DNA of 64,000 nucleotides from Escherichia coli. Lineage in GTDB: Bacteria > Pseudomonadota > Gammaproteobacteria > Enterobacterales > Enterobacteriaceae. Every line of letters begins with the position of its first letter. The stretch's first letter is position 1. The stretch is taken from assembly GCF_044324875.1 (NCBI RefSeq), contig NZ_CP172185.1; one strand, written 5' to 3'. Below the pieces are notes generated by a model. It was not told where the DNA came from. It worked only from the letters and a program-made list of their open reading frames with translations, and ran no database searches. Shown piece after piece: positions 7,156 to 54,575 of the stretch. The position numbers and the translations under genes were made by a program.

Positions 7156-8253
7156 ATGTCATCTGAAAAACTGTATTCCCCACTGAAAGTGGGCGCGATC
7201 ACGGCGGCAAACCGTATTTTTATGGCACCGCTGACGCGTCTGCGCAGTATTGAACCGGGTGACATCCCTACCCCGTTGATGGCGGAATACTATCGCCAAC
7301 GTGCCAGTGCCGGTTTGATTATTAGCGAAGCCACGCAAATTTCTGCCCAGGCAAAAGGGTATGCTGGTGCACCTGGCATCCATAGTCCGGAACAAATTGC
7401 CGCATGGAAAAAAATTACCGCTGGCGTTCATGCTGAAAATGGTCATATGGCCGTACAGCTGTGGCACACCGGACGCATTTCTCACGCCAGCCTGCAACCT
7501 GGCGGTCAGGCACCGGTAGCGCCTTCCGCACTTAGCGCGGGAACACGTACTTCTCTGCGCGATGAAAATGGTCAGGCGATCCGTGTTGAAACATCCATGC
7601 CGCGTGCGCTTGAACTGGAAGAGATTCCGGGTATCGTCAATGATTTCCGTCAGGCCATTGCTAACGCGCGTGAAGCCGGTTTTGATCTGGTAGAGCTCCA
7701 CTCTGCTCATGGTTATTTGCTGCATCAGTTCCTTTCTCCTTCTTCAAACCATCGTACCGATCAGTACGGCGGCAGCGTGGAAAATCGCGCACGTCTGGTG
7801 CTGGAAGTGGTCGATGCAGGGATTGAAGAATGGGGGGCCGATCGCATTGGCATTCGCGTTTCGCCAATCGGTACTTTCCAGAACACGGATAACGGCCCGA
7901 ATGAAGAAGCCGATGCACTGTATCTGATTGAACAACTGGGTAAACGCGGCATTGCTTATCTGCATATGTCAGAACCAGATTGGGCGGGAGGTGAACCGTA
8001 TACTGATGCGTTCCGCGAAAAAGTACGCGCCCGTTTCCACGGTCCGATTATCGGCGCAGGTGCATACACGGTAGAAAAAGCCGAAACGCTGATTGGCAAA
8101 GGGTTAATTGATGCGGTGGCATTTGGTCGTGACTGGATTGCGAACCCGGATCTGGTCGCCCGCTTGCAGCGCAAAGCTGAGCTTAACCCACAGCGTGCCG
8201 AAAGTTTTTACGGTGGCGGCGCGGAAGGCTACACTGATTACCCGACGCTATAA
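7156..8253 (+). CDS. nemA: N-ethylmaleimide reductase (Old Yellow Enzyme family)
   Basis: 365-aa OYE-family ORF; recognised sequence. Confidence 0.92.
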
Positions 8254-8333
8254 TCCAACATTGCGAGCGGCGCAAAGCCGCCGCTATACTAAAACAACAT
8301 TTTGAATCTGTTAGCCATTTTGAGGATATAAAG

Positions 8334-8741
8334 ATGCGTCTTCTTCATACCATGCTGCGCGTTGGCGATCTGCAACGCTCCATCGATTTTTATACCAAAG
8401 TACTGGGCATGAAACTGCTGCGTACCAGCGAAAACCCGGAATACAAATACTCACTGGCGTTTGTTGGCTACGGCCCGGAAACCGAAGAAGCGGTGATTGA
8501 ACTGACCTACAACTGGGGCGTGGATAAATACGAACTCGGCACTGCTTATGGTCACATCGCGCTTAGCGTTGATAACGCCGCTGAAGCGTGCGAAAAAATC
8601 CGTCAAAACGGGGGTAACGTCACCCGTGAAGCGGGTCCGGTAAAAGGCGGTACTACGGTTATCGCGTTTGTGGAAGATCCGGACGGTTACAAAATTGAGT
8701 TAATCGAAGAGAAAGACGCCGGTCGCGGTCTGGGCAACTAA
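8334..8741 (+). CDS. gloA: glyoxalase I (lactoylglutathione lyase)
   Basis: 135-aa [29 protein letters not shown]...; recognised. Confidence 0.93.
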
Positions 8742-9583: not shown

Positions 9584-12500
9584 ATGGCAGATAATCCAAA
9601 CCTTTCATCGCCCCTGCCGGACGTGTTTTCACCGGCAACCCGCGACTGGTTTCTTCGCGCCTTTAAACAGCCGACCGCTGTCCAGTCGCAAACCTGGCAT
9701 GTGGCGGCGCGAGGCGAACATGCGCTGGTGATTGCACCGACTGGCTCCGGGAAAACGCTGGCAGCATTTCTCTACGCCCTCGATCAGCTCTTCCGCGAAG
9801 GCGGCGAAGATACCCGCGAGGCGCATAAACGTAAAACCTCACGCATCCTCTATATTTCACCGATCAAAGCTCTGGGCACCGACGTTCAGCGCAACTTGCA
9901 GATCCCGTTACAGGGTATTGCCGATGAACGGCGGCGGCGCGGCGAAACGGAAGTCAATCTTCGCGTGGGGATCCGTACTGGCGATACGCCTGCACAGGAA
10001 CGCAGCAAACTCACCCGTAATCCGCCGGATATTCTGATCACCACACCCGAATCACTCTATCTGATGCTGACCTCCCGCGCGCGCGAAACGCTACGCGGCG
10101 TCGAAACGGTAATTATTGATGAAGTCCACGCGGTAGCGGGCAGTAAACGTGGTGCGCATCTGGCGTTAAGTCTGGAGCGGCTCGATGCGCTGCTCCACAC
10201 CTCAGCACAGCGAATTGGCCTTTCTGCCACTGTACGCTCAGCCAGCGATGTTGCAGCATTTCTTGGTGGCGATCGCCCGGTTACGGTAGTAAACCCGCCC
10301 GCAATGCGCCATCCGCAGATACGGATTGTCGTACCGGTCGCCAATATGGATGATGTCTCATCGGTCGCCAGCGGCACCGGCGAAGACAGCCATGCCGGCC
10401 GAGAAGGCTCCATCTGGCCATATATTGAAACGGGTATCCTTGATGAAGTTTTGCGCCATCGCTCGACCATTGTCTTTACTAATTCACGCGGGCTGGCGGA
10501 AAAACTGACGGCACGATTGAATGAACTTTACGCCGCACGCTTACAGCGTTCCCCGTCTATCGCCGTTGATGCGGTCCATTTCGAGTCGACCTCCGGCGCA
10601 ACCTCTAACCGTGTACAAAATAGCGACATTTTTATTGCCCGCTCACACCACGGCTCCGTCTCTAAAGAACAACGAGCAATCACCGAACAGGCGCTGAAAT
10701 CGGGTGAATTACGCTGCGTGGTCGCAACCTCCAGTCTCGAACTGGGGATTGATATGGGCGCGGTGGATCTGGTGATTCAGGTGGCAACGCCGCTTTCTGT
10801 TGCCAGTGGGTTACAACGCATTGGACGTGCCGGACACCAGGTAGGTGGTATCTCCAAAGGGCTTTTTTTCCCCCGAACCAGGCGTGACTTAGTCGATTCC
10901 GCAGTCATTGTAGAGTGTATGTTCGCAGGCAGGCTGGAAAACCTGACACCGCCGCATAATCCACTCGACGTCCTTGCGCAGCAAACCGTTGCCGCCGCGG
11001 CGATGGATGCATTACAGGTAGACGAATGGTAATCCCGCGTACGCCGTGCCGCACCGTGGAAAGATCTGCCAAGACGTGTTTTTGACGCCACGCTGGATAT
11101 GCTTTCCGGGCGCTATCCCTCTGGCGATTTTTCTGCTTTTCGCCCCAAACTGGTCTGGAACCGGGAGACCGGGATATTGACCGCCCGACCTGGCGCTCAA
11201 TTGTTGGCGGTTACCAGCGGCGGCACCATTCCGGATCGTGGCATGTATAGCGTGTTATTACCCGAAGGTGAAGAACAGGCCGGTTCGCGGCGGGTGGGTG
11301 AACTGGATGAGGAGATGGTATATGAGTCGCGGGTGAACGACATTATCACTCTCGGCGCTACCTCATGGCGGATCCAGCAAATCACCCGCGATCAGGTGAT
11401 TGTGACTCCTGCTCCAGGTCGTTCTGCCCGCCTTCCCTTCTGGCGTGGTGAAGGTAACGGACGTCCGGCAGAATTAGGCGAGATGATCGGCGATTTTCTC
11501 CATTTACTGGCGGATGGCGCGTTCTTTTCCGGGACTATTCCCCCGTGGTTGGCAGAAGAAAATACGATCGCCAATATTCAGGGGTTGATTGACGAGCAGC
11601 GCAACGCGACGGGCATCGTTCCAGGTAGTCGTCATCTGGTCCTCGAACGGTGCCGTGATGAAATTGGTGACTGGCGTATTATTTTGCACTCTCCCTATGG
11701 AAGACGGGTGCATGAACCCTGGGCGCTGGCGATTGCCGGGCGAATACATGCACTATGGGGCGCTGACGCGTCTGTGGTTGCCAGTGATGACGGCATTGTT
11801 GCGCGCATTCCTGACACCGATGGTAAATTGCCTGATGCCGCGATTTTTTTGTTTGAACCAGAAAAGTTGCTGCAAATTGTCCGCGAGGCGGTAGGCAGCT
11901 CGGCACTTTTCGCCGCCCGTTTTCGCGAATGCTCCGCGCGGGCATTATTAATGCCGGGCCGCACGCCGGGCCATCGCACCCCGCTCTGGCAACAACGGCT
12001 GCGCGCCAGTCAGTTGCTGGAAATCGCTCAGGGATATCCGGATTTTCCGGTCATTCTCGAAACACTACGCGAATGTCTGCAAGATGTTTATGATCTTCCC
12101 GCGCTGGAACGTTTGATGCGTCGCCTGAACGGTGGCGAAATTCAAATATCCGATGTAACGACCACTACGCCTTCGCCTTTCGCCGCCAGTTTATTGTTCG
12201 GCTATGTCGCGGAATTTATGTACCAGAGCGACGCCCCGCTGGCAGAGCGCCGGGCATCCGTACTGTCGCTGGACAGCGAGTTACTGCGCAATCTACTCGG
12301 ACAGGTCGATCCGGGGGAATTACTCGACCCGCAGGTCATTCGCCAGGTGGAAGAAGAGTTGCAACGACTGGCTCCTGGCAGAAGAGCGAAAGGTGAAGAA
12401 GGATTGTTCGACCTGCTGCGCGAACTGGGGCCAATGACCGTTGAAGACCTGGCGCAACGACATACAGGCAGCAGTGAAGAGATTGCGTCGTATCTGGAAA

Positions 12501-13284
12501 ATCTTCTTGCAGTAAAACGAATCTTCCCGACCATGATTAGCGGGCAGGAGCGTCTTGCCTGTATGGATGATGCCGCCAGGCTGCGCGATGCTCTCGGCGT
12601 ACGACTACCAGAGTCACTGCCAGAGATTTATTTGCACCGAGTCAGTTACCCGCTTCGCGACCTCTTTCTGCGCTATCTCCGGGCTCATGCTCTGGTCACG
12701 TCTGAACAACTGGCTCATGAGTTTAGTCTCGGTACTGCCATTGTCGAAGAGCAACTTCAGCAACTGCGCGAACAGGGGCTGGTGATGAATCTGCAACAAG
12801 ACATCTGGGTGAGCGATGAAGTATTTCGTCGTCTGCGTTTGCGCTCGCTGCAAGCCGCCAGAGAAGCGACACGTCCCGTTGCGGCCACGACCTATGCGCG
12901 ATTGCTGCTGGAACGTCAGGGCGTATTACCCGCCACCGATGGTAGCCCGGCACTCTTTGCCTCAACATCGCCAGGCGTTTATGAGGGCGTGGATGGCGTG
13001 ATGCGGGTGATCGAACAGCTTGCTGGCGTTGGTTTACCCGCCTCACTCTGGGAAAGCCAGATCCTGCCTGCCCGCGTACGCGACTATTCGCCAGAAATGC
13101 TCGATGAATTACTGGCAACCGGTGCGGTTATCTGGTCGGGGCAAAAAAAGCTGGGTGAAGATGACGGTCTGGTGGCACTGCATCTACAGGAATATGCCGC
13201 AGAATCGTTCACTCCCGCCGAAGCAGATCAGGCGAATCGTTCGGCGCTGCAGCAAGCGATAATCGCTGTTCTGGCTGACGGAGG
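9584..13284 (+). pseudogene. lhr: lhr (large ATP-dependent helicase) 5' portion: in-frame TAA at 11030-11032, then truncated by prophage insertion
   Basis: ORFs 9584..11032 and 11099..13297 are in the same frame, separated by a single TAA; Walker A GSGKT and DEVH helicase motifs; frame runs into the prophage left end and stops at 13295-13297. Confidence 0.85.
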
Positions 13285-13297
13285 TGATCAGACATGA

Positions 13298-31340: not shown

Positions 31341-32860
31341 CGGAGCTGCCGCCGCACATTCCTGACACCGCGAGTTATGAGACACCGCCGGTTCTGTTGC
31401 CTTACCAGCAGCGCTGGGTGGCAGATACCTCTCCGCTTAAGGTGATGGAAAAGAGCCGTCGTACCGGTATTACATGGGCTGAGGCATCCGATAACGTACT
31501 GACCGCAGCCTCTTCTGCGCCTGCAGGCGGGATGAATGTGTATTACATCGCCTATAACCAGGATATGACCGTCGAATACATTCAGGCGTGTGCGATGTGG
31601 GCGCGGGCATTCAACTATGCGGCCAGTGAAATTGAAGAAGGATTCTGGGAGGAGGACGACGACGATAAACACATCAGGACTTACACCATCAAATTTCCTG
31701 ACTCCGGCTTTCGCATTGTCGCGCTCTCCAGCCGCCCGTCTAACCTGCGTGGCCGTCAGGGTATTATTGTTATCGACGAAGCGGCGTTCCATGAGCAACT
31801 GGACGAACTGCTGAAAGCGGCGCTGGCGATGCTTATCTGGGGGGGCAAGGTACGCGTTATCTCCACCCATGACGGTGACGACAATCCATTCAGTACGCTT
31901 ATCGGAGATATCCGTGCCGGACGTCAGGGAGGCAGCGTACATCGCATCACTTTCCGGGAAGCCGTATCTGAGGGGCTGTTCCAGCGCGTTTGTCTGCGCA
32001 CCGGGAAGGAATGGTCGGAGGCATCCGAGCTGGCCTGGATGGCGTCGGTGTACAAATTCTACGGTGCCGGCGCATCCGAAGAGCTTGACTGTATTCCGGC
32101 CAACGGTGGCGGTGCCTGGCTGTCCCGTGCCCTGATAGAGTCCCGAATGTCCGCTGATACGCCAGTATTGCGTCTGACCTGCAAGGAAGGTTATGAACTG
32201 CTGTCTGATGAGGTTCGCTTCCACGAGACACAGGACTGGCTTGATGAGCATCTGAAACCCTTGCTGGAGGCACTCCCCACTGATGCCCGCTCTTTCCTGG
32301 GGCGCGACTTTGGTCGCAGCGGTGATTTGTCGGTGGACTATCCCCTGCTGCAGGAGAAGAACCTGGTACGACGCGTGCCATTCGTACTGGAGCTGCGTAA
32401 CGTGCCGTTCAGACAGCAGGAGCAAATCACCTGGTATCTGATGGATGGCCTGCCCGGTCTGCTGGGTGCAGCATTTGATGCCCGTGGTAATGGTGCCTAT
32501 CTGGCTGAATACGCCATGCAGCGCTACGGCTCCAGCCGGGTTCAGCAGGTGATGCCAACCGAAGGCTGGTACCGGGAGCATATGCCTCCGGTCAAAGCTG
32601 CACTGGAAGACGGTAACCTGCTGGACTTACCAAAAGATGAAGACACACTGGATGACCTGCGGGCCGTTCAGGTGGTGAACGGTGTCCCCCGCGTGCCGGA
32701 ACAACGCTCAAAAGCAAAGGCTGATGGTGGTAAACGCCACGGGGATTCAGCCATCGCACTGGCGCTGGCGTATTTCGCCAGCCGTGAAATTAACAAAGGG
32801 CCGGTGAAGGCAAGCTCACGACGTCGTCGTCAGGCGGCCCGTATGCTGGAGGGATTCTGA
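31337..32860 (+). CDS. terminase large subunit (Mu gp28-like)
   Basis: 507-aa ORF with IIVIDEAAF Walker B-like motif; precedes portal. Confidence 0.7.
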   Translation: MTELPPHIPDTASYETPPVLLPYQQRWVADTSPLKVMEKSRRTGITWAEASDNVLTAASSAPAGGMNVYYIAYNQDMTVEYIQACAMWARAFNYAASEIEEGFWEEDDDDKHIRTYTIKFPDSGFRIVALSSRPSNLRGRQGIIVIDEAAFHEQLDELLKAALAMLIWGGKVRVISTHDGDDNPFSTLIGDIRAGRQGGSVHRITFREAVSEGLFQRVCLRTGKEWSEASELAWMASVYKFYGAGASEELDCIPANGGGAWLSRALIESRMSADTPVLRLTCKEGYELLSDEVRFHETQDWLDEHLKPLLEALPTDARSFLGRDFGRSGDLSVDYPLLQEKNLVRRVPFVLELRNVPFRQQEQITWYLMDGLPGLLGAAFDARGNGAYLAEYAMQRYGSSRVQQVMPTEGWYREHMPPVKAALEDGNLLDLPKDEDTLDDLRAVQVVNGVPRVPEQRSKAKADGGKRHGDSAIALALAYFASREINKGPVKASSRRRRQAARMLEGF

Positions 32861-41740: not shown

Positions 41741-42076
41741 ATGTCACAGACCCCATCCGATACTTTTAAATTGTCTTATCCCTTCACCACTGCTGCAGGC
41801 ACCAGAATTGAGCTGGTTGAACTGAAACGCCTGACGGTAAAAGACCTGAAGCAGGTGCGCAAAATCAGCAAAAACCCGGCAGACTGGGACGAACCGCTGA
41901 TTGCCCGCAGTACTGGTCTTCTCCCGGAAGATCTCGACAATATGGATCTGGCTGATTACCTGCAGTTACAGAAACGATTTCAGCTCATCACGGGGATGGG
42001 TGAGAGCGACAAAGGCGCTGACGCAGGCGCAGGGGCTGCTGGCGAGATGGTTCCGGTTTCAGCCGGGGGAGATTGA
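41741..42076 (+). CDS. tail assembly chaperone (gpE/gpG-like)
   Basis: 111-aa acidic ORF between tube and tape measure; overlapping ORF 41901..42158 in +1 frame. Confidence 0.5.
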   Translation: MSQTPSDTFKLSYPFTTAAGTRIELVELKRLTVKDLKQVRKISKNPADWDEPLIARSTGLLPEDLDNMDLADYLQLQKRFQLITGMGESDKGADAGAGAAGEMVPVSAGGD

Positions 42077-42233
42077 TGCCCTCGATACTGACGATCTGGA
42101 GATGTGGCTGGAGCAGGCTGAAGAGCAAATAAAAAGCGAGTACGGCGACAAATCATAGTACAGACAGCCGCCAGTAGCGGCTGTTCTGCGTTATCCCCTC
42201 ACGTCTTTTCACCTTCCCCGGAGGTTAACCACT

Positions 42234-45185
42234 ATGTCGGGACAGTTTTCAGTCGGCGTTGTTATCGGCGGGATGATTGGCAGCACATTCCGTTCTGCAA
42301 TGAGCGGTACCCGCCGTGCGCTTGATTCCCTGAGCGATACCTCACGCCGCCTGCAGGAACGTCAGAACGCTTTAACCCGTGCAACAGAACGTTATGGTCA
42401 ACTGGGCTCTTCCCGGATGCAGCATCTCAACAGCGAGCTGCTGCGGGTAAGCCGCACCATGGAGCAAATTGAGCGCCAGCAGCGCCGTCTGTCAGCGGCA
42501 TCAGCCACCAGTGATGCGCTGAAAGCTAACCGCATGGCGCTGTATGGTCAGGGGATTGAAGCGTATGGCATGGCACAGACTGTTTATCATACGGTTTCCC
42601 CTGCCGTTCAGCAGTCCATGTCTTTTCAGGACAAAATGATTGATATGTCGATCACCGCAAAATATGACAATAAAACGCGGGATGCACTTGCCGGACAGAT
42701 AAAAGGCTGGGCGCAAAAATACAATCAGTATCAGGATGAACTGCAGGAGGCGGTGGGTTCGCTCATCAGCGACAATATTGATAACTTGTCAGATATCGGT
42801 TTTCTGATGCCGGATATTGCCCGCGCGGCAACGGCAACACGCACGTCATCTCAGGACTGGGCAAAAGTGGCCGCAGTCTGGCAAAACTCCCTGAAAGGTG
42901 CGGCCAGAGATTTTAGTGCCGTCCAGAATATTATGGCTTATGCCGGTGACCAGGGGTCATTTGAAATCCCGGATCAGGTCAAGTGGATGCAGTCCCTGGC
43001 CCCAATGATGGCGGGTATTGCCAGTGGAAAAGAGGCTGTTGCTGAAATCGGGGCCAGTCTCCAGATAGCAAAAATCGGTGCGGGCTCCACCGACGAAGCA
43101 GCCAATAATTTTAAAAACTTTCTTACCAAAATTTTTGCCCGCGATACTCAGAAACAGTTTGCTGATCTGGGTATTGATTTGCAGGGTTCTGTTGCGAGTT
43201 ATAAGGCTGCGGGGATCTCTCCGATTGAAGGGATGTTGAGTGTTATAGAACGTTACCTCAATGCCAAAAGCCCCGAAGCGCTGGCCGGCTTCAAATCCGC
43301 CATGAAAATAAAGAATGATACGGCAAGAGATGAGGCACTTCAGGCTCTGGCGAAAAACTTTGGTCTGGGCGATATGTTCGCGGATATGCAGGTCATGGCA
43401 TTTATCCGCCCGATGCTGGCCAACATGGACAGATATCGCGAGATCCGTGCCGGTGCTCTCAGGGCTGCGGATAACGATTTGCTTGCCAGTGCTTACGATC
43501 AGCGGCTGAAATCTCCCCTTGAAGCCACTAAAGCGCTTATGGTCAGCAGTCGCGATCTGGCTATTACGCTGGGCGATCAGCTCGCCCCCTCTTTTATTTC
43601 TCTGACTCAGGAGCTGATCCCACTCATTCAGGGGGCAAAACACTGGGTGGCGACTCACCCGCAATTTGTCAGTGGGGCTTTTAAGCTCATCAGTGCGCTC
43701 CTTGCGATTAAGATAGCGACTGTTGGTCTCAAACTGGGGCTGAATCTCCTTATTTCCCCCTTTGTGAACGTCTGGAAAACTGCTGTTTTACTCCGGACCA
43801 ACTGGCATCGACTGACTACCGCACTAGGAGAAGGTGGCAAATTACGCTGGCTTGTCACTGGATTTAGCCGACTGACCAGCGGAGGACTGAAACTCAGCAA
43901 AGTTCTGGCGGGCAGCCTCGTTCGCGGTTTTATGAGCGCTGCACGTGCCGTTCTCTGGATTGGGCGAGCGCTGATGATGAATCCCATCGGTCTCGTTATC
44001 ACCGCTGTCGCGGCAGCAGCTTACCTTATCTACCGCAACTGGGGGACAGTCAGTGGCTGGTTTAAACAGCGCTGGGCTGACATTCAGGAAGCCTTTAACG
44101 GCGGTATCGCGGGAACTGGTAAGCTGCTGATTAACTGGTCGCCGGCAGGGCTGCTCTATAAAGCCTTTGCGGCTGCGCTGAAATATTTCGGCGTTGCTCT
44201 GCCGGCAAAGTTCACCGACTTCGGTGGCCATCTTGTCGACGGTCTGATTAACGGTATCAAAAACAAATGGGGGTCGCTCAAATCCAGTGTAACCGGAATG
44301 GGTGACAGCATCAGTAGCTGGTTTAAACAGTGCTGGTCTGACATTCAGGAGGCCTTTAACGGCGGTATCGCGGGAACTGGTAAGCTGCTGATTAACTGGT
44401 CGCCGGCAGGTCTGCTCTATAAAGCCTTTGCAGCTGCGCTGAAATATCTTGGTGTTGATCTGCCGGCAAAGTTCACCGACTTCGGTGGCCATCTTGTCGA
44501 CGGTCTGATTAACGGTATCAAAAACAAATGGGAGTCGCTCAAATCCAGTGTAACCGGAATGGGTGACAGCATCAGTGGCTGGTTCAGTGAAAAGCTGGGT
44601 ATTCATTCGCCGAGCCGCGTGTTTATGGGCTTTGGTGACAATATCGCGCAGGGGGCCGCCATTGGCCTGCAGCGGAGCACTCCGATTGCAGCTCTGGCCG
44701 GGCAGCGAATGGCCAGTGAACTGCTCCCCAGAATGCCCGTGAGCATTCAGGGGCCAGAAATACGGGATAACACTTCAGGTGTTCGCTTCAGTATGCCGTT
44801 GCCCGATATCAACGGGTTTATGTCGTCTGCTAAAAATGCGATCGGATCCGTAATCAATAGTTTGTCTTCCATGCCCGCTATTCCGATCTCCACCCGGGCA
44901 TCGACTTTACCAGGTCAACGTCTGGCAAATGAGATGACACCGGATGTTCCCCGTATCCCCTCGCCTGAAATCCTGGCTGCCGGATATTCAGGCCGTGGTG
45001 CAGCTGCAACCGGCGGTGGAACGTCTGGTGGTATCCAGGTCAGCTTTAATCCTCAGTTTTTCCTCAATGGCAGGGAAACCACAGCGCCTGCAGGACTGAC
45101 TGGTGCCCTGAATATGAGTCTGCATGAGCTGGAAAAAATGCTGGAGCGTCTGCTGGCTCAGAAACAACGTAAGGAGTACCGCTGA
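42234..45185 (+). CDS. tail tape measure protein
   Basis: 983-aa ORF with coiled-coil N-terminus, TM segments and internal tandem duplication. Confidence 0.8.
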   Translation: MSGQFSVGVVIGGMIGSTFRSAMSGTRRALDSLSDTSRRLQERQNALTRATERYGQLGSSRMQHLNSELLRVSRTMEQIERQQRRLSAASATSDALKANRMALYGQGIEAYGMAQTVYHTVSPAVQQSMSFQDKMIDMSITAKYDNKTRDALAGQIKGWAQKYNQYQDELQEAVGSLISDNIDNLSDIGFLMPDIARAATATRTSSQDWAKVAAVWQNSLKGAARDFSAVQNIMAYAGDQGSFEIPDQVKWMQSLAPMMAGIASGKEAVAEIGASLQIAKIGAGSTDEAANNFKNFLTKIFARDTQKQFADLGIDLQGSVASYKAAGISPIEGMLSVIERYLNAKSPEALAGFKSAMKIKNDTARDEALQALAKNFGLGDMFADMQVMAFIRPMLANMDRYREIRAGALRAADNDLLASAYDQRLKSPLEATKALMVSSRDLAITLGDQLAPSFISLTQELIPLIQGAKHWVATHPQFVSGAFKLISALLAIKIATVGLKLGLNLLISPFVNVWKTAVLLRTNWHRLTTALGEGGKLRWLVTGFSRLTSGGLKLSKVLAGSLVRGFMSAARAVLWIGRALMMNPIGLVITAVAAAAYLIYRNWGTVSGWFKQRWADIQEAFNGGIAGTGKLLINWSPAGLLYKAFAAALKYFGVALPAKFTDFGGHLVDGLINGIKNKWGSLKSSVTGMGDSISSWFKQCWSDIQEAFNGGIAGTGKLLINWSPAGLLYKAFAAALKYLGVDLPAKFTDFGGHLVDGLINGIKNKWESLKSSVTGMGDSISGWFSEKLGIHSPSRVFMGFGDNIAQGAAIGLQRSTPIAALAGQRMASELLPRMPVSIQGPEIRDNTSGVRFSMPLPDINGFMSSAKNAIGSVINSLSSMPAIPISTRASTLPGQRLANEMTPDVPRIPSPEILAAGYSGRGAAATGGGTSGGIQVSFNPQFFLNGRETTAPAGLTGALNMSLHELEKMLERLLAQKQRKEYR
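44058..44590 (+). repeat. 240-bp tandem duplication inside tape measure gene (two full units plus start of a third)
   Basis: Protein repeat WFKQ(R/C)W(A/S)DIQEAFNGGIAGTGKLLINWSPAGLLYKAFAAALKY... occurs twice 80 aa apart. Confidence 0.7.
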
Positions 45186-46069
45186 TGTTTGCCGTACTGG
45201 GTGATATTGAGTTTGATCTGATTACCTACTGGGACGGCTTCGAGGCCACGTTCGGCGTCGATTATGCGGAGCATGCCCGCATCGGGGGTAAGCCTGGCCT
45301 GCAGTTCGTCGGCGACAGGCTGGACGAAATCCAGATAAGTCTGGTCTTCCATCAGCATTATTGTGCACCCGATGTGGAGCTGGCGAGACTGCGAACAACC
45401 ATGAAAGCCCATCAGGCACTGGCGCTGGTCTTCGGCAACGGTGACTATCGTGGCTGGTTCGTGATTACCGATGTGACCGCAACCAGCGAGCAGACAGACA
45501 GCACCGGTAACGTGCTGGCTGTCAGTGCCACCGTGTCTCTCCGGGAATACACCGGTGATCCGAAAAATCCTCTGCAACCACCGGCAATACGCACGAAGCT
45601 CCCGGGTGTCGGGGCGGTCTCCGGTGCCATTCCTTCACCTTCAGGGGTGGCGCAGTTCATCCGCAACGGCGTCAACTATGCGAAACAGGCGCAGTCTGTA
45701 CTCCAGACCACTATCAGCGCCGTTCGGGTGACACAGAAAATGAAGGATAACCCCGTTGTCGCACTGACCCGTGTGCCGGGGCTGATGAGCGGACTGGGTA
45801 ATATCTCCGGGGCTCTGGGGAAAAGTGTTCCGGCGTTTAACGCACTCTCTGAATCCATGCCCGATGCCATCAGTCTGGCCAGAACAGCCAGCGAAGCAGC
45901 CACGTATGTACAGCAGGCACAGTCTGCGCTGAGTGGTGTGGACAAAAGAAATATTGCAGGTGCTCTGGATACCGTTTCCGGGCAGCTTAACGCCGCCAGC
46001 ACAGCATTCAACCGCATGTCTCCGGGATTAAGTGCAATGGCCGCCAGAATACTGACGAGGAGTGTGTGA
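45185..46069 (+). CDS. tail protein (Mu N / DNA-circularisation-like)
   Basis: 294-aa ORF directly after tape measure; assignment by order. Confidence 0.5.
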   Translation: MFAVLGDIEFDLITYWDGFEATFGVDYAEHARIGGKPGLQFVGDRLDEIQISLVFHQHYCAPDVELARLRTTMKAHQALALVFGNGDYRGWFVITDVTATSEQTDSTGNVLAVSATVSLREYTGDPKNPLQPPAIRTKLPGVGAVSGAIPSPSGVAQFIRNGVNYAKQAQSVLQTTISAVRVTQKMKDNPVVALTRVPGLMSGLGNISGALGKSVPAFNALSESMPDAISLARTASEAATYVQQAQSALSGVDKRNIAGALDTVSGQLNAASTAFNRMSPGLSAMAARILTRSV

Positions 46070-50083: not shown

Positions 50084-51798
50084 TTATGGGAAACCTGAAT
50101 GAAACAGAAAAGTGGGAAGAAAATATCTATCAACTGGAGACATCAGATCCGGTTCTGGGTGGTGCAGACGGGATATCAAATCGAGCCCCCCGGCAACTGG
50201 CAAACAGGACGAAATGGCTGAAGAAGAAAACGGAGGAAGCCGCACAGTCACTGGCTGAACACGTACGTTCCCGTAACCACCCGGACGCGACACTGACAGC
50301 TAAGGGGTTCACCCAACTGAGCAGTGCCACCAACAGCACCTCTGAAACGCTGGCCGCCACACCAAAAGCGGTCAAGGCTGCATACGACCTGGCAGCCGGC
50401 AAGGCGCCTGCCAGCCACACTCACCCGTGGAGTCAGATAACGGGAGTGCCTGCGGCTTCACTGACGGCAAAAGGCACCGTACAACTGAGCAGCGCCACGG
50501 ACAGTCAATCAGAAACTGAGGCTGCCACGCCGAAGGCTGTGAAAATCGCGTATGATCTGGCCCGGGGAAAATACACAGCCCAGGATGCAACAACGACCCG
50601 TAAAGGGATCGTACAACTGAGCAGTGCCATCAACAGCACGTCTGAAACGCTGGCCGCCACACCGAAAGCGGTCAAGGCTGCATACGACCTGGCAGCCGGC
50701 AAGGCGCCTGCCAGCCACACTCACCCGTGGAGTCAGATAACGGGAGTGCCTGCGGCTTCACTGACGGCAAAAGGCACCGTACAACTGAGCAGCGCCACGG
50801 ACAGTCAATCAGAAACTGAGGCTGCCACGCCGAAGGCTGTGAAAATCGCGTATGATCTGGCCCGGGGAAAATACACAGCCCAGGATGCAACAACGACCCG
50901 TAAAGGGATCGTACAACTGAGCAGTGCCATCAACAGCACGTCTGAAACGCTGGCCGCCACACCGAAAGCGGTCAAGGCTGCATACGACCTGGCAGCCGGC
51001 AAGGCGCCTGCCAGCCACACTCACCCGTGGAGTCAGATAACGGGAGTGCCTGCGGCCTCGCTGACGGCAAAAGGCACCGTACAACTGAGCAGTGCCATCA
51101 ACAGCACGTCTGAAATACTGGCCGCCACACCGAAAGCGGTCAAGGCTGCATACGATCTGGCAAACGGAAAACAACCGGCAGATGCCACGCTCACTGCTCT
51201 GGCAGGACTTGCCACTGCAGCAGATCGGTTGCCTTATTTTACCGGAGCAGACCGCGCAGCGCTGGCAACCCTTACAGCTATTGGTCGCGCTATTATCGCT
51301 AAGGGCAGTATAAAAGATGTCCTCAATTACCTTGGTTTGGGGGAAGGCTCTGCATTGCCTGTTGGTGTACCGGTTCCATGGCCCACCGCCACACCGCCAG
51401 CAGGCTGGTTACAGTGCAACGGAGCTACGTTCACCAAAGAACAATATCCTGTTCTGGCCAGAGTCTACCCGACCCTCCGTCTTCCCGATTTGCGCGGTGA
51501 GTTTATCCGTGGATGGGACGGTGGTCGCAAGGTTGATACCGGGCGTGCGCTACTTTCATTTCAGGAAGGGACTATCGTATCCGGTTTTGATGATAATGAT
51601 ACCGGAGATATCAGTTCGCTCGGCTCTACACAATACGGATTTGGTGACGCTTTAACCTCTAATCAACTGGGGGTCATAAATGGCAAAAAGTGGATATTTG
51701 ATGCATCCTCTAAAGGTGCACAAAGATATGACTGGTGGGCTTATGTATCAGCTCGCCCCCGCAATATCGCATTTAACTATATCGTGAGGGCGGCGTGA
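50080..51798 (+). CDS. side tail fibre protein (Stf-like) with invertible variable C-terminus
   Basis: 572-aa ORF with repeated TAKGxVQLSSAxNSTSETLAATPKAVK motifs, PWP region and C-terminal NIAFNYIVRAA as in lambda Stf. Confidence 0.8.
   Translation: MIMGNLNETEKWEENIYQLETSDPVLGGADGISNRAPRQLANRTKWLKKKTEEAAQSLAEHVRSRNHPDATLTAKGFTQLSSATNSTSETLAATPKAVKAAYDLAAGKAPASHTHPWSQITGVPAASLTAKGTVQLSSATDSQSETEAATPKAVKIAYDLARGKYTAQDATTTRKGIVQLSSAINSTSETLAATPKAVKAAYDLAAGKAPASHTHPWSQITGVPAASLTAKGTVQLSSATDSQSETEAATPKAVKIAYDLARGKYTAQDATTTRKGIVQLSSAINSTSETLAATPKAVKAAYDLAAGKAPASHTHPWSQITGVPAASLTAKGTVQLSSAINSTSEILAATPKAVKAAYDLANGKQPADATLTALAGLATAADRLPYFTGADRAALATLTAIGRAIIAKGSIKDVLNYLGLGEGSALPVGVPVPWPTATPPAGWLQCNGATFTKEQYPVLARVYPTLRLPDLRGEFIRGWDGGRKVDTGRALLSFQEGTIVSGFDDNDTGDISSLGSTQYGFGDALTSNQLGVINGKKWIFDASSKGAQRYDWWAYVSARPRNIAFNYIVRAA
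50287..51178 (+). repeat. tandem repeats in tail fibre gene (300-bp units, near-identical, with ~100-bp sub-repeats)
   Basis: Identical reverse-frame ORFs 50372..50593 and 50672..50893 show an exact 300-bp period; protein repeat of about 100 aa x3. Confidence 0.75.
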
Positions 51799-51804
51799 TA
51801 CCGT

Positions 51805-52419
51805 TCAGCCGGCAAGCGCCAGTGGCGCTTCCGGCCAGCTGATTTCAGGTGCCTTGCTGATATCCAGTGCGTTCAGCTCGTCGATATAATCCAGCACGGC
51901 GTTCAGTTTTGCCGTTTCTTCTGGTTTCAGACTGCGACCTGCCCGCAGTTTGAGGTTGATGAGGTCGATGGACTTCATCGCCTGATCCACCCGTTCCTGG
52001 CGTTGCAGTCTGGCAACCTCCAGCTCTGCGGCTCGCTGCCGTTCAGTATCGGTTACCCACGCCTCACCGTTCCAGGTATCCCATGGCGTGGCCGGCTGTT
52101 TTGTGGTGGTGTCCGCCGGGTAATCACCCGGCTGGGTAATCTGAACGGGAGTACCGTTCTCCGTGCTGTATACCGTCTCGCCGCGGTGATCAGGCACATG
52201 TTCCCACCCGTTCAGCGTGGCAGTCCGGCAAACCACGTAACCCGAAATTGCCTCCGGCGGTGCATCGGCGCACGAATGTGCCGGAGTACCCACCCCAAGG
52301 GCGAGATACTCCACAGAGGATGAGGTGTATTCCCGGGTTTCCTCGTCATAGTGATATACAGTGATATCGCCCGCTACAGTGGCGATACCGTTTTCATCCA
52401 GAACTGCAGTGTTACTCAT
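51805..52419 (-). CDS. tail fibre assembly protein (Tfa/U-like), cognate to the alternative fibre tip
   Basis: 204-aa ORF of Tfa type downstream of the alternative fibre C-terminus on the minus strand. Confidence 0.7.
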   Translation of the reverse strand: MSNTAVLDENGIATVAGDITVYHYDEETREYTSSSVEYLALGVGTPAHSCADAPPEAISGYVVCRTATLNGWEHVPDHRGETVYSTENGTPVQITQPGDYPADTTTKQPATPWDTWNGEAWVTDTERQRAAELEVARLQRQERVDQAMKSIDLINLKLRAGRSLKPEETAKLNAVLDYIDELNALDISKAPEISWPEAPLALAG

Positions 52420-52901
52420 TAAACTGCCCTCACAATGTAATTAAGTGCAATGCTACGGGGTCTGACAGTGATACCCTTCGCATACCCGCTTCTGATAGAG
52501 GTCAGAATAGTAGCCTGCATACCATTGTCTGACATTGCCACGACAGGATCGCTGAATGTTGTCCCGTCCGGCATTTTAAAGCTGCCCTCACGAAGGTCTG
52601 TAATGGAATCTTCATTGTTGAATCCCATGCCGACTATCCCCGAGGTTCCCGTAGTGTCCTGGTTATAATAATCCAGCATTGCTGTTCTTAACAGCGTTGC
52701 CCCTTGTGCGGACAGCAACTTACGTCCTGTATCAACTTTGCGCCCGTCGTCCCATCCACGGATAAACTCACCGCGCAAATCGGGAAGACGGAGGGTCGGG
52801 TAGGCTCTGGCCAGAACAGGATATTGTTCTTTTGTAAAGGCGCGCCCGTCGCACTTTAACCAGCCTGCTGGCGGTGTGGCGGTGGGCCACGGAACAGGCA
52901 C
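52419..52901 (-). CDS. alternative tail fibre C-terminal cassette (promoterless in current orientation)
   Basis: Begins PVPWPTATPPAGWL..., paralogous to the plus-strand fibre tip, ends NYIVRAV; lies inside the invertible segment. Confidence 0.7.
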   Translation of the reverse strand: MPVPWPTATPPAGWLKCDGRAFTKEQYPVLARAYPTLRLPDLRGEFIRGWDDGRKVDTGRKLLSAQGATLLRTAMLDYYNQDTTGTSGIVGMGFNNEDSITDLREGSFKMPDGTTFSDPVVAMSDNGMQATILTSIRSGYAKGITVRPRSIALNYIVRAV

Positions 52902-53002
52902 ACCAACGGGTAGCGCCGAGCCTTCTCCTAAACCAACGTTTATCTCTCAAATCCTCCTCACATTATCTCAGTACTTTAACCACTCAAAAGGGAGTATTTT
53001 TA

Positions 53003-53575
53003 ATGCTGATTGGCTACATACGTGTGTCAACAAATGACCAAAACACAGATTTGCAACGCAATGCATTAATGTGCGCAGGATGTGAACAGATTTTTGAGGA
53101 CAAAATGAGCGGAACCAAGTCGGAACGACCAGGCCTGAAACGCGCTTTAAAGTGCCTTAAAAGAGGGGATACATTGGTGGTCTGGAAGCTGGATCGGTTG
53201 GGTAGAAGAATGAAACACCTCATTGCTCTCACAGAAGAGCTACGCGCAAAAGGTGTCAATTTTCGCAGTCTGACGGATTCAATCGATACCAGCACTCCGA
53301 TGGGAAGGTTCTTTTTTCATATGATGGGTGCACTGGCAGAAATGGAGCGTGAACTGATAGTTGAGCGCACGCTGGCAGGACTGGCTGCTGCGCGAGCACA
53401 AGGGAGAGTTGGAGGACGTCGCCCGAAACTGACGAAGGAGCAGCATGAGCAGATCGCAAGATTGCTCCAGAAAGGGTATGACAGAAAGCGGCTGGCAATT
53501 ATCTATGATATTGGACTGTCAACGATCTACCGCTATCACCCTGTTGGGACTGTCATAACGGAACCTGAAATGTAA
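53003..53575 (+). CDS. gin: Gin/Hin/Cin-family serine DNA invertase
   Basis: MLIGYIRVSTNDQNTDLQRNAL... closely matches Mu Gin; ATG at 53003 with AAAGGGAG SD. Confidence 0.9.
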   Translation: MLIGYIRVSTNDQNTDLQRNALMCAGCEQIFEDKMSGTKSERPGLKRALKCLKRGDTLVVWKLDRLGRRMKHLIALTEELRAKGVNFRSLTDSIDTSTPMGRFFFHMMGALAEMERELIVERTLAGLAAARAQGRVGGRRPKLTKEQHEQIARLLQKGYDRKRLAIIYDIGLSTIYRYHPVGTVITEPEM

Positions 53576-53659: not shown

Positions 53660-54575
53660 AGCCTGGTTTGCACAACAAATCAGCCAACGGATACGCGATA
53701 AAATCGGCGAATCGGTTGATCCCTCAGCCATGCAAGAGGCGTTATGGGCGCTGGTCTGGCAAGGCGTCATCACCAGCGACATTTGGGCACCGTTACGCGC
53801 CCTCACCCGCAGCAGTTCCAACGCACGCACCTCGACTCGCCGCAGTCACCGGGCTCGTCGTGGGCGTCCTGTCTATGCACAACCCGTCTCGCCACGGGTA
53901 TCTTACAACACACCAAATCTTGCTGGACGCTGGTCGTTATTGCAGGTGGAGCCACTAAACGATACCGAAAGGATGCTGGCGCTGGCGGAAAATATGCTCG
54001 ACCGCTACGGCATCATCAGTCGTCAGGCGGTGATAGCCGAAAATATCCCTGGCGGGTTTCCATCGATGCAAACGCTTTGTCGAAGTATGGAAGACTCCGG
54101 GCGAATTATGCGAGGTCGTTTTGTAGAAGGTCTGGGGGGTGCGCAATTCGCTGAACGTCTGACTATTGACCGATTGCGCGATCTGGCGACACAAGCCACG
54201 CAAACGCGCCACTATACACCAGTGGCGCTCTCCGCCAACGATCCGGCTAATGTGTGGGGAAATCTTCTGCCCTGGCCTGCACATCCGGCAACGCTGGTTC
54301 CAACGCGTCGGGCGGGTGCGCTGGTGGTCGTTTCTGGCGGCAAATTGTTACTCTATCTGGCGCAAGGCGGCAAAAAAATGCTGGTCTGGCAGGAAAAAGA
54401 TGAATTACTCGCCCCAGAGATTTTCCAGGCGCTGACCACCGCACTGCGTCGCGAACCACGGCTGCGCTTTACGCTAACAGAAGTGAATGATCTACCGGTC
54501 CGGCAAACGCCGATGTTTACGCTGCTGCGTGAGGCGGGATTTTCAAGTTCGCCACAAGGGCTGGATTGGGGATAG
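53660..54575 (+). pseudogene. lhr: lhr 3' portion downstream of prophage
   Basis: Frame continues from the junction through ORF 53730..54575; 5' plus 3' parts total 4617 nt. Confidence 0.85.

Follow-up and report, generated by a model that had tools for sequence, protein, structure and literature searches.

A tandem duplication in perfect register, far beyond what chance would produce, is present in the tape measure gene of a BcepMu-like transposable prophage of Escherichia coli. The prophage lies in a stretch of 64,000 nucleotides (hereafter the window) from contig NZ_CP172185.1 of assembly GCF_044324875.1, and the gene is an open reading frame (ORF) of 983 aa at 42234–45185 on the plus strand. 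Our preferred interpretation, which we hold to be likely, is that an 87-residue helical module was duplicated in the ruler protein of this prophage, that the array has since been reshaped by unequal recombination, and that the length of the phage tail has changed with it. The locus confirms, and leaves unchanged, the known principle that tape measure genes evolve by internal tandem duplication and loss.

Anatomy of the repeat

Repeats within the ORF were sought with Tandem Repeats Finder and with a direct repeat search. The former returned a single array at 44050–44584, with a period of 261, 2.0 copies, 95% matches and a score of 993, and the latter placed the copies at 44050–44310 and 44311–44571 on the plus strand, with 96% identity between them. 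The unit (261 bp, 87 aa) is in-frame and falls in the C-terminal third of the protein; in codon register, copy 1 occupies 44052–44312 (aa 607–693) and copy 2 occupies 44313–44573 (aa 694–780). An earlier, sequence-only reading of this DNA had described a duplication inside the gene; its tandem copies are real, but the unit it proposed, 240 bp or 80 aa, was wrong. The two copies differ at 11 nucleotides across 10 codons, amounting to six amino-acid changes and four silent codons. The ratio of nonsynonymous to synonymous substitution rates (dN/dS) between them was 0.35 (0.031/0.088), which suggests, though the numbers are small, that both copies have been kept functional.

Past copy 2, only 13 nt of the unit repeat (TCAGTGGCTGGTT, 44572–44584, plus strand, encoding SGWF) before the sequence diverges into SEKLGIHSPSRVF. 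These 13 nt had been taken as the beginning of a third copy. In one-copy relatives, however, the single unit is bracketed by this short repeat, whose two occurrences are separated by 261 bp (TCAGTAGCTGGTT ... TCAGTGACTGGTT), and the repeat is therefore an ancestral flank of the unit; given this and the shortness of the match, a partial third copy was rejected. From its position on both sides of the unit, the flank repeat was probably the substrate of the first duplication.

The assignment of the gene as a tape measure, also made by the sequence-only reading, was upheld by several lines of evidence. The protein belongs by profile cut-off to the TP901 family, with a PF10145 match at aa 159–345 (73.9 bits against a cut-off of 33.2) and a TIGR01760 match (56.6 bits against 28.8), and it is 100% identical to the RefSeq entry ‘phage tail tape measure protein’ WP_021547582.1 of strain AR_0085. 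Its gene occupies the position expected of a tape measure, behind the tube and chaperone genes and ahead of those for the baseplate hub, in a tail cluster that comprises, in this order, sheath, tube, chaperone, tape measure, gpU-like, tail X, gpD-like and gpV-like genes. With 983 aa it is a long protein with hydrophobic segments, and it is mostly helical as judged from the modelled 172-residue part. A Kyte-Doolittle scan located two such segments (aa 478–508 and 579–600) in a region just upstream of the repeat (43665–44033, plus strand); tape measures typically contain hydrophobic regions (PMC5099701).

A 254-aa ORF runs antisense over the repeat, at 43842–44606 on the minus strand, and is most likely a by-product of repeated stop-free sequence.

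Copy number among related prophages

Copy number in relatives was determined by joining the two flanks of the array without the unit, querying the joined sequence against complete E. coli genomes and reading the number of units from the span of the match. Two samples were drawn: one with flanks of 300+300 nt (60 of 626 records), in which spans of 861, 1122 and 1383 denote one, two and three copies and four copies could not be joined, and one with flanks of 700+700 nt (60 of 635 records), in which four copies could be joined. Two copies were read in 42 of 60 matches in either sample, and three copies in 12 of 60 and 13 of 60, respectively; a one-copy allele of the main group was seen once in the first sample (DLI.5a) and not in the second, the remaining rows of both being divergent or partial matches. 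No four-copy allele appeared among the 60 records (of 635) sampled with the longer flanks or among the 120 top database proteins. Among the sampled E. coli prophages, then, about 70% carry two copies and about 20% carry three, one-copy alleles are rare, and the window holds the commonest allele. Annotated gene lengths concur, with 2691 bp in DLI.5a, 2952 bp in LS4 and FORC_031, and 3213 bp in EC11 and AVS0750, as do the lengths of the top 120 database proteins (983 aa, n = 43; 896 aa, n = 27; 1070 aa, n = 17).

The duplication is neither recent nor private to this genome. Two copies are the commonest state in close relatives, and the array is old, shared and polymorphic, with one, two or three units. 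When the comparison with orthologs that the sequence-only reading had proposed was made, the close orthologs turned out to share the duplication, an outcome that the reading had itself named as counting against it, and the distant ones to have a single copy. One-copy distant relatives include phage Phi06_2974 B, Klebsiella phage KP12 and two E. coli strains, 12089 and A33, and the tape measure proteins of such relatives are 821–825 aa long (lengths from 12089, A33 and KP12). The two-copy gene of the window itself recurs at an identity of at least 99% in 13 complete E. coli genomes, each sequenced independently, and is thus no artefact of this assembly. All sampled complete genomes of sequence type 131 (ST131) had two copies; since the allele is unchanged across this clone, the array is stable within it and change in copy number is not rapid.

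In Ecol_448, which has a three-copy allele, the matches spanned 1382 and 2182 bp where those in other three-copy alleles spanned 1383 and 2183 bp, and the annotation divides the matched stretch into more than one protein, suggesting a frameshift in the tape measure gene.

History of the array

Throughout the two- and three-copy alleles, the first copy is of one type (A) and the last of another (B), the types being separated by eight fixed nucleotide differences at unit positions 4, 19, 120, 136, 138, 141, 146 and 221. Copy 1 of the window is of type A, with the diagnostic bases GCGTCCCG at these positions, and copy 2 is of type B, with ATACTTAA. Across alleles, first copies group with first copies and last with last, so that orthologous units are closer than paralogous ones. 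The single units of the outgroups 12089, A33 and KP12 all read BAABAABB at the DNA level, so that either type has four derived changes; the distant one-copy units carry the ancestral state at all eight sites. This distribution fits a derived duplication, a single event that would have followed the split from the one-copy distant lineages and after which the copies diverged.

Three-copy alleles have a middle copy that reads BBAAAAAA in AVS0750 and BAAAAAAA in EC11, and the only unit of the one-copy allele DLI.5a reads AABBBBBB. Middle units (B/A) and single units (A/B) are therefore reciprocal chimeras, as expected from unequal crossing-over. The same reciprocal chimeras, with several switch points, were found in protein-level patterns among the 120 database proteins. 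The arrangement of the copies (head-to-tail and in register) and the polymorphism of their number among close relatives likewise agree with unequal recombination. Reciprocal chimeric units were found for gain and for loss alike, with the caveat that collapse of short-read assemblies mimics the pattern of loss.

The sequence of events we propose begins with an ancestor that would have had one unit flanked by the 13-nt repeat at a distance of 261 bp. Duplication between the flanking short repeats would then have given two units, which may have diverged by four fixed substitutions each into the first-copy type A and the last-copy type B. Unequal homologous recombination between the copies would subsequently have let the array gain and lose units, yielding three-copy alleles with a B/A chimera in the middle and rare one-copy alleles consisting of an A/B chimera. 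This copy-number polymorphism, with its signatures of recurrent unequal crossing-over, was missed by the sequence-only reading and is more informative than the duplication as such.

Two candidates for a survivor of the one-copy stage were considered and rejected. The 896-aa one-copy alleles do not represent the ancestral state, their units being A/B chimeras or mosaics with B-derived bases, and the one-copy allele marked by ‘GRATLDIG’ is no pre-duplication form, as its DNA reads AAABBBBA and has the derived bases of type B in the middle of the unit.

One-copy versions and draft assemblies

The repeat evidently disturbs assemblies. The GenBank record of Escherichia phage PhiKM has a gap of 100 N inside the repeat (7915–8014 of the locus), and hundreds of draft contigs contain one-copy versions whose flanks are 100% identical to those of two-copy alleles. 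In one of these versions, P0100, the flanks are 100% identical to the window allele and the switch between types falls within the longest run over which the window copies are identical (unit positions 147–220, 74 nt). In another, P0120, which is listed in 545 collection blocks with a longest contig below 1 Mb in most of them, the flanks are 100% identical to an ST131-type allele and the switch again lies in the longest identical run of that allele (79 nt). Because the switch points coincide with the longest identical runs and the sampled complete ST131 genomes have two copies, collapse in the drafts is suspected. Many one-copy versions in short-read drafts are thus probably products of assembler collapse, judging from these junctions, although real recombination gives the same product. 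DLI.5a is a complete genome in which the switch occurs in an identical run of only 17 nt, and it is therefore the best case for a real loss. For this prophage family, draft genomes are accordingly no reliable source of tape measure lengths, because short-read assembly breaks or collapses the repeat.

The module in other tape measure proteins

The 87-aa unit was searched against 1.84 billion representative proteins (E ≤ 0.001) and matched 561 tape measure clusters. In the best 150 of these 561, the module was present as one copy in 123 and as two to four tandem copies in 27; up to four or five matched stretches of it were seen in distant relatives. The tandem periods among the 27 were diverse, with 76 aa the commonest, followed by 87, 113–114, 72, 105 aa and others, and the many periods and boundaries indicate numerous independent duplications of the module. 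An alignment of 40 distant examples displayed the motifs NWSPxGLxYKAF and LPAKFTDFG and then LGIxSPSRVF. The last of these belongs to a conserved single-copy region that follows the repeat in the window (44585–44699, plus strand, beginning SEKLGIHSPSRVFMGFGDNIAQGAAIGL...), in which that alignment shows no variation at S139, P140 and S141 and almost none at V143 and F144.

With the full-length protein as query, a single-sequence search gave no match in the PDB, and only a profile search reached distant tape measures. A profile built from the 40-sequence alignment, spanning the unit together with the LGIHSPSRVF region, matched the tape measure chains 6v8i (gp57 of the Staphylococcus phage 80alpha; E = 2e-10), 9m8o (Gp14; 8e-17) and 9d93 (1.6e-5), the likeness being one of sequence and confined to their C-terminal parts. 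On these matches, the module belongs to a widely shared C-terminal region of tape measure proteins. An AlphaFold2 model of the one-copy segment had a mean predicted local distance difference test score (pLDDT) of 82.7 and was nearly all helix; the repeat unit is accordingly predicted to be mostly helical.

Expected effect on tail length and known ruler systems

Tape measure length is known to set tail length in other phages. In lambda, shortening the ruler gene gives proportionally shorter tails, as recounted in a later paper that cites Katsura and Hendrix (PMC3271669). In TP901-1, tail length tracks the size of the tape measure: about 810 length-determining residues correspond to 118 nm, roughly 0.146 nm each, and deletion and insertion mutants have tails that are shorter or longer in proportion to the number of residues lost or gained (PMC5099701). 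If the same relation applies here, each extra unit would add 87 residues to the ruler and hence about 13 nm to the tail, roughly 10% of the ruler. By this calculation, the tail of the window phage should be about 13 nm longer than that of the one-copy forms and about 13 nm shorter than that of the three-copy forms. The sequence-only reading had proposed a tail longer than that of the ancestor; the derived state of the duplication, apparent from one-copy outgroups that are ancestral at all eight sites, is consistent with this, while the lengthening itself is an expectation from the ruler rule.

Gene length would set tail length here as it does in the experiments on lambda gpH, TP901-1 and T4 gp29, with the difference that those used engineered deletions and duplications, whereas the one-, two- and three-unit forms described here are natural and known from sequence. 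Gp29 of T4, in work by Abuladze et al. from 1994, is likewise said to act as a ruler in a contractile tail. The alleles thus form a natural series, running from one unit to three and including an older 71-residue indel, in which the ruler rule could be followed in a contractile Mu-like E. coli phage without engineering, and the series sits in sequenced strains (DLI.5a, the strains with the window allele, EC11 and ABU 83972). The 71-residue indel is a second length polymorphism, revealed by protein alignment at 44700–44912 (plus strand): the segment is present in the main E. coli group, is absent from the relatives of 821–825 aa, and is bounded by a short repeat, GQRMASE.. / GQRLANE.. (GQRMASELLPRMPVSIQGPEI / GQRLANEMTPDVPRIPSPEIL).

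Tape measures with internal tandem repeats have been described before (Belcaid, Bergeron and Poisson 2011, PMC3271669; TP901-1, PMC5099701), and the present case resembles them in that copy number varies among related phages by duplication and loss, that orthologous copies are closer than paralogous ones, reflecting a shared duplication history, and that the repeats have been proposed as a natural route to changes in tail length. It differs in that the published units have 11 or 18 residues with Trp or Phe at fixed spacing, whereas the unit here has 87 residues and lacks such a pattern, and in the kind of phage: most published cases come from siphophages that infect Gram-positive bacteria, while the element here is a transposable, Mu-like E. 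coli prophage with a contractile tail. When the test of Belcaid et al. (2011) was applied, which looks for seven Trp or Phe residues in a row spaced by 11 or for an 11-11-18 pattern, neither pattern was found, and the longest chain of such residues at steps of 11 or 18 had three members. We found no literature on this polymorphism, on PhiKM or on tail lengths in E. coli BcepMu-like phages. Tube rings of contractile tails rise by about 38 Å each, and at 1.5 Å per residue 87 aa would correspond to about 3.4 rings, which is no integer; the idea of a hidden quantum, of 11 residues or of one tube ring, behind the periods of 76, 87 and 113–114 aa was dropped as numerology.

Alternative explanations

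Several points weigh against the interpretation that duplication and unequal recombination have altered the tail. The effect of a unit on tail length is a prediction carried over from experiments in lambda and TP901-1. The model is of a monomer and contains helix breaks; if the units double back on themselves, each residue could extend the ruler by less than 1.5 Å. The module is also strongly conserved (NWSPxGLxYKAF, LPAKFTDFG), which may point to a role beyond filling length. The frequencies of the alleles are skewed by clonal sampling, many of the two-copy matches being ST131 genomes with identical alleles. Finally, the one-copy allele P0076 is an A-B-A mosaic that needs gene conversion or two events, and the history of the array is therefore more than one of single crossovers.

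Some of these points lead to another explanation, in which the module is a functional domain, engaged for instance in contact with the tube lumen or a chaperone or in membrane insertion at DNA delivery, and its copy number alters that activity with little or no proportional change of the tail. Its conservation over 561 tape measure clusters, some residues being invariant or nearly so, its place just after the hydrophobic segments and the purifying selection on both copies (dN/dS 0.35) would all suit a domain, and the interruptions in the predicted helices would allow a folded-back arrangement. Against this, the TP901-1 tail becomes proportionally shorter whether residues are deleted from the repeat region or from the first hydrophobic region (PMC5099701), the many duplication periods elsewhere are better matched by changes of length than by a fixed number of domains, and nothing points to a catalytic or binding motif; we consider a domain effect of this kind unlikely. 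It is more doubtful still that the module is a dedicated ‘length cassette’ whose copy number is selected to match host surface layers such as O-antigen or capsule, with crossing-over as a means of adaptive tuning, and we mention this only as speculation.

Differences in copy number could also be neutral and have no phenotype that matters, the prophage being expressed seldom or not at all. Unequal crossing-over in register keeps the frame automatically, so that intact ORFs are no proof of selection; the three-copy allele of Ecol_448 may be frameshifted, and dozens of ST131 genomes with an unchanged two-copy allele speak for slow variation. This explanation nevertheless strikes us as very unlikely in view of PhiKM, whose tape measure gene is 97.7% identical and which was deposited as a phage, of the intact tail module in the window and its relatives, and of a dN/dS below 1 between the copies. 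That the two copies are a false expansion produced during assembly of the window has a negligible chance of being right. The repeat does trouble assemblers, as the gap in PhiKM and the seemingly collapsed one-copy drafts attest, but assemblers collapse repeats and do not invent diverged copies, the 11 differences between the copies follow a pattern common to the alleles, and the identical two-copy gene occurs in the 13 complete genomes, which come from different laboratories, with similar ones in hundreds more.

The prophage and neighbouring genes

The BcepMu-like prophage spans about 13286–53653 of the window (roughly 40.4 kb) and splits an lhr-type ATP-dependent helicase gene, the flanks of which lie at 11099–13297 and 53730–54575; the ORFs on either side align with NF007284, at profile positions 506–1234 and 1258–1538. 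A short direct repeat, CGGAGG, abuts both ends of the prophage, which read TGATC... and ...GCATCA. Escherichia phage PhiKM (PQ738613.1, genus Bcepmuvirus), whose GenBank entry describes a phage with a uropathogenic E. coli host, shares the order of the tail genes as well as the tape measure gene; the 100-N gap of its record falls within the array from which copy number would be read. The window and relatives alike have the entire tail module intact.

The tape measure gene is immediately preceded by the tail assembly chaperone region (41741–42158, plus strand), made up of an ORF at 41741–42076 and an overlapping ORF in a downstream frame at 41901–42158. In syntenic loci these are annotated as ‘phage tail assembly protein’ and ‘GpE family phage tail protein’, and a syntenic gene is assigned to PF10109. 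Directly downstream is a gpU-like tail protein gene (45185–46069, plus strand), for which the syntenic gene is recorded as PF06995 (Phage_P2_GpU).

In AR_0085, a prophage of the same type lies within a P2-like prophage, with a truncated lysB on one side of it and the P2 tail genes on the other (31418–31925 and 7594–8408 of two AR_0085 loci); the same element therefore has different insertion sites across strains. Relative to AR_0085, a tail-fibre segment of about 1.6 kb (51332–52939) is inverted in the window at 99.9% identity. It adjoins a recombinase-like ORF at 52874–53575 and, from this arrangement, looks like an invertible host-range segment.

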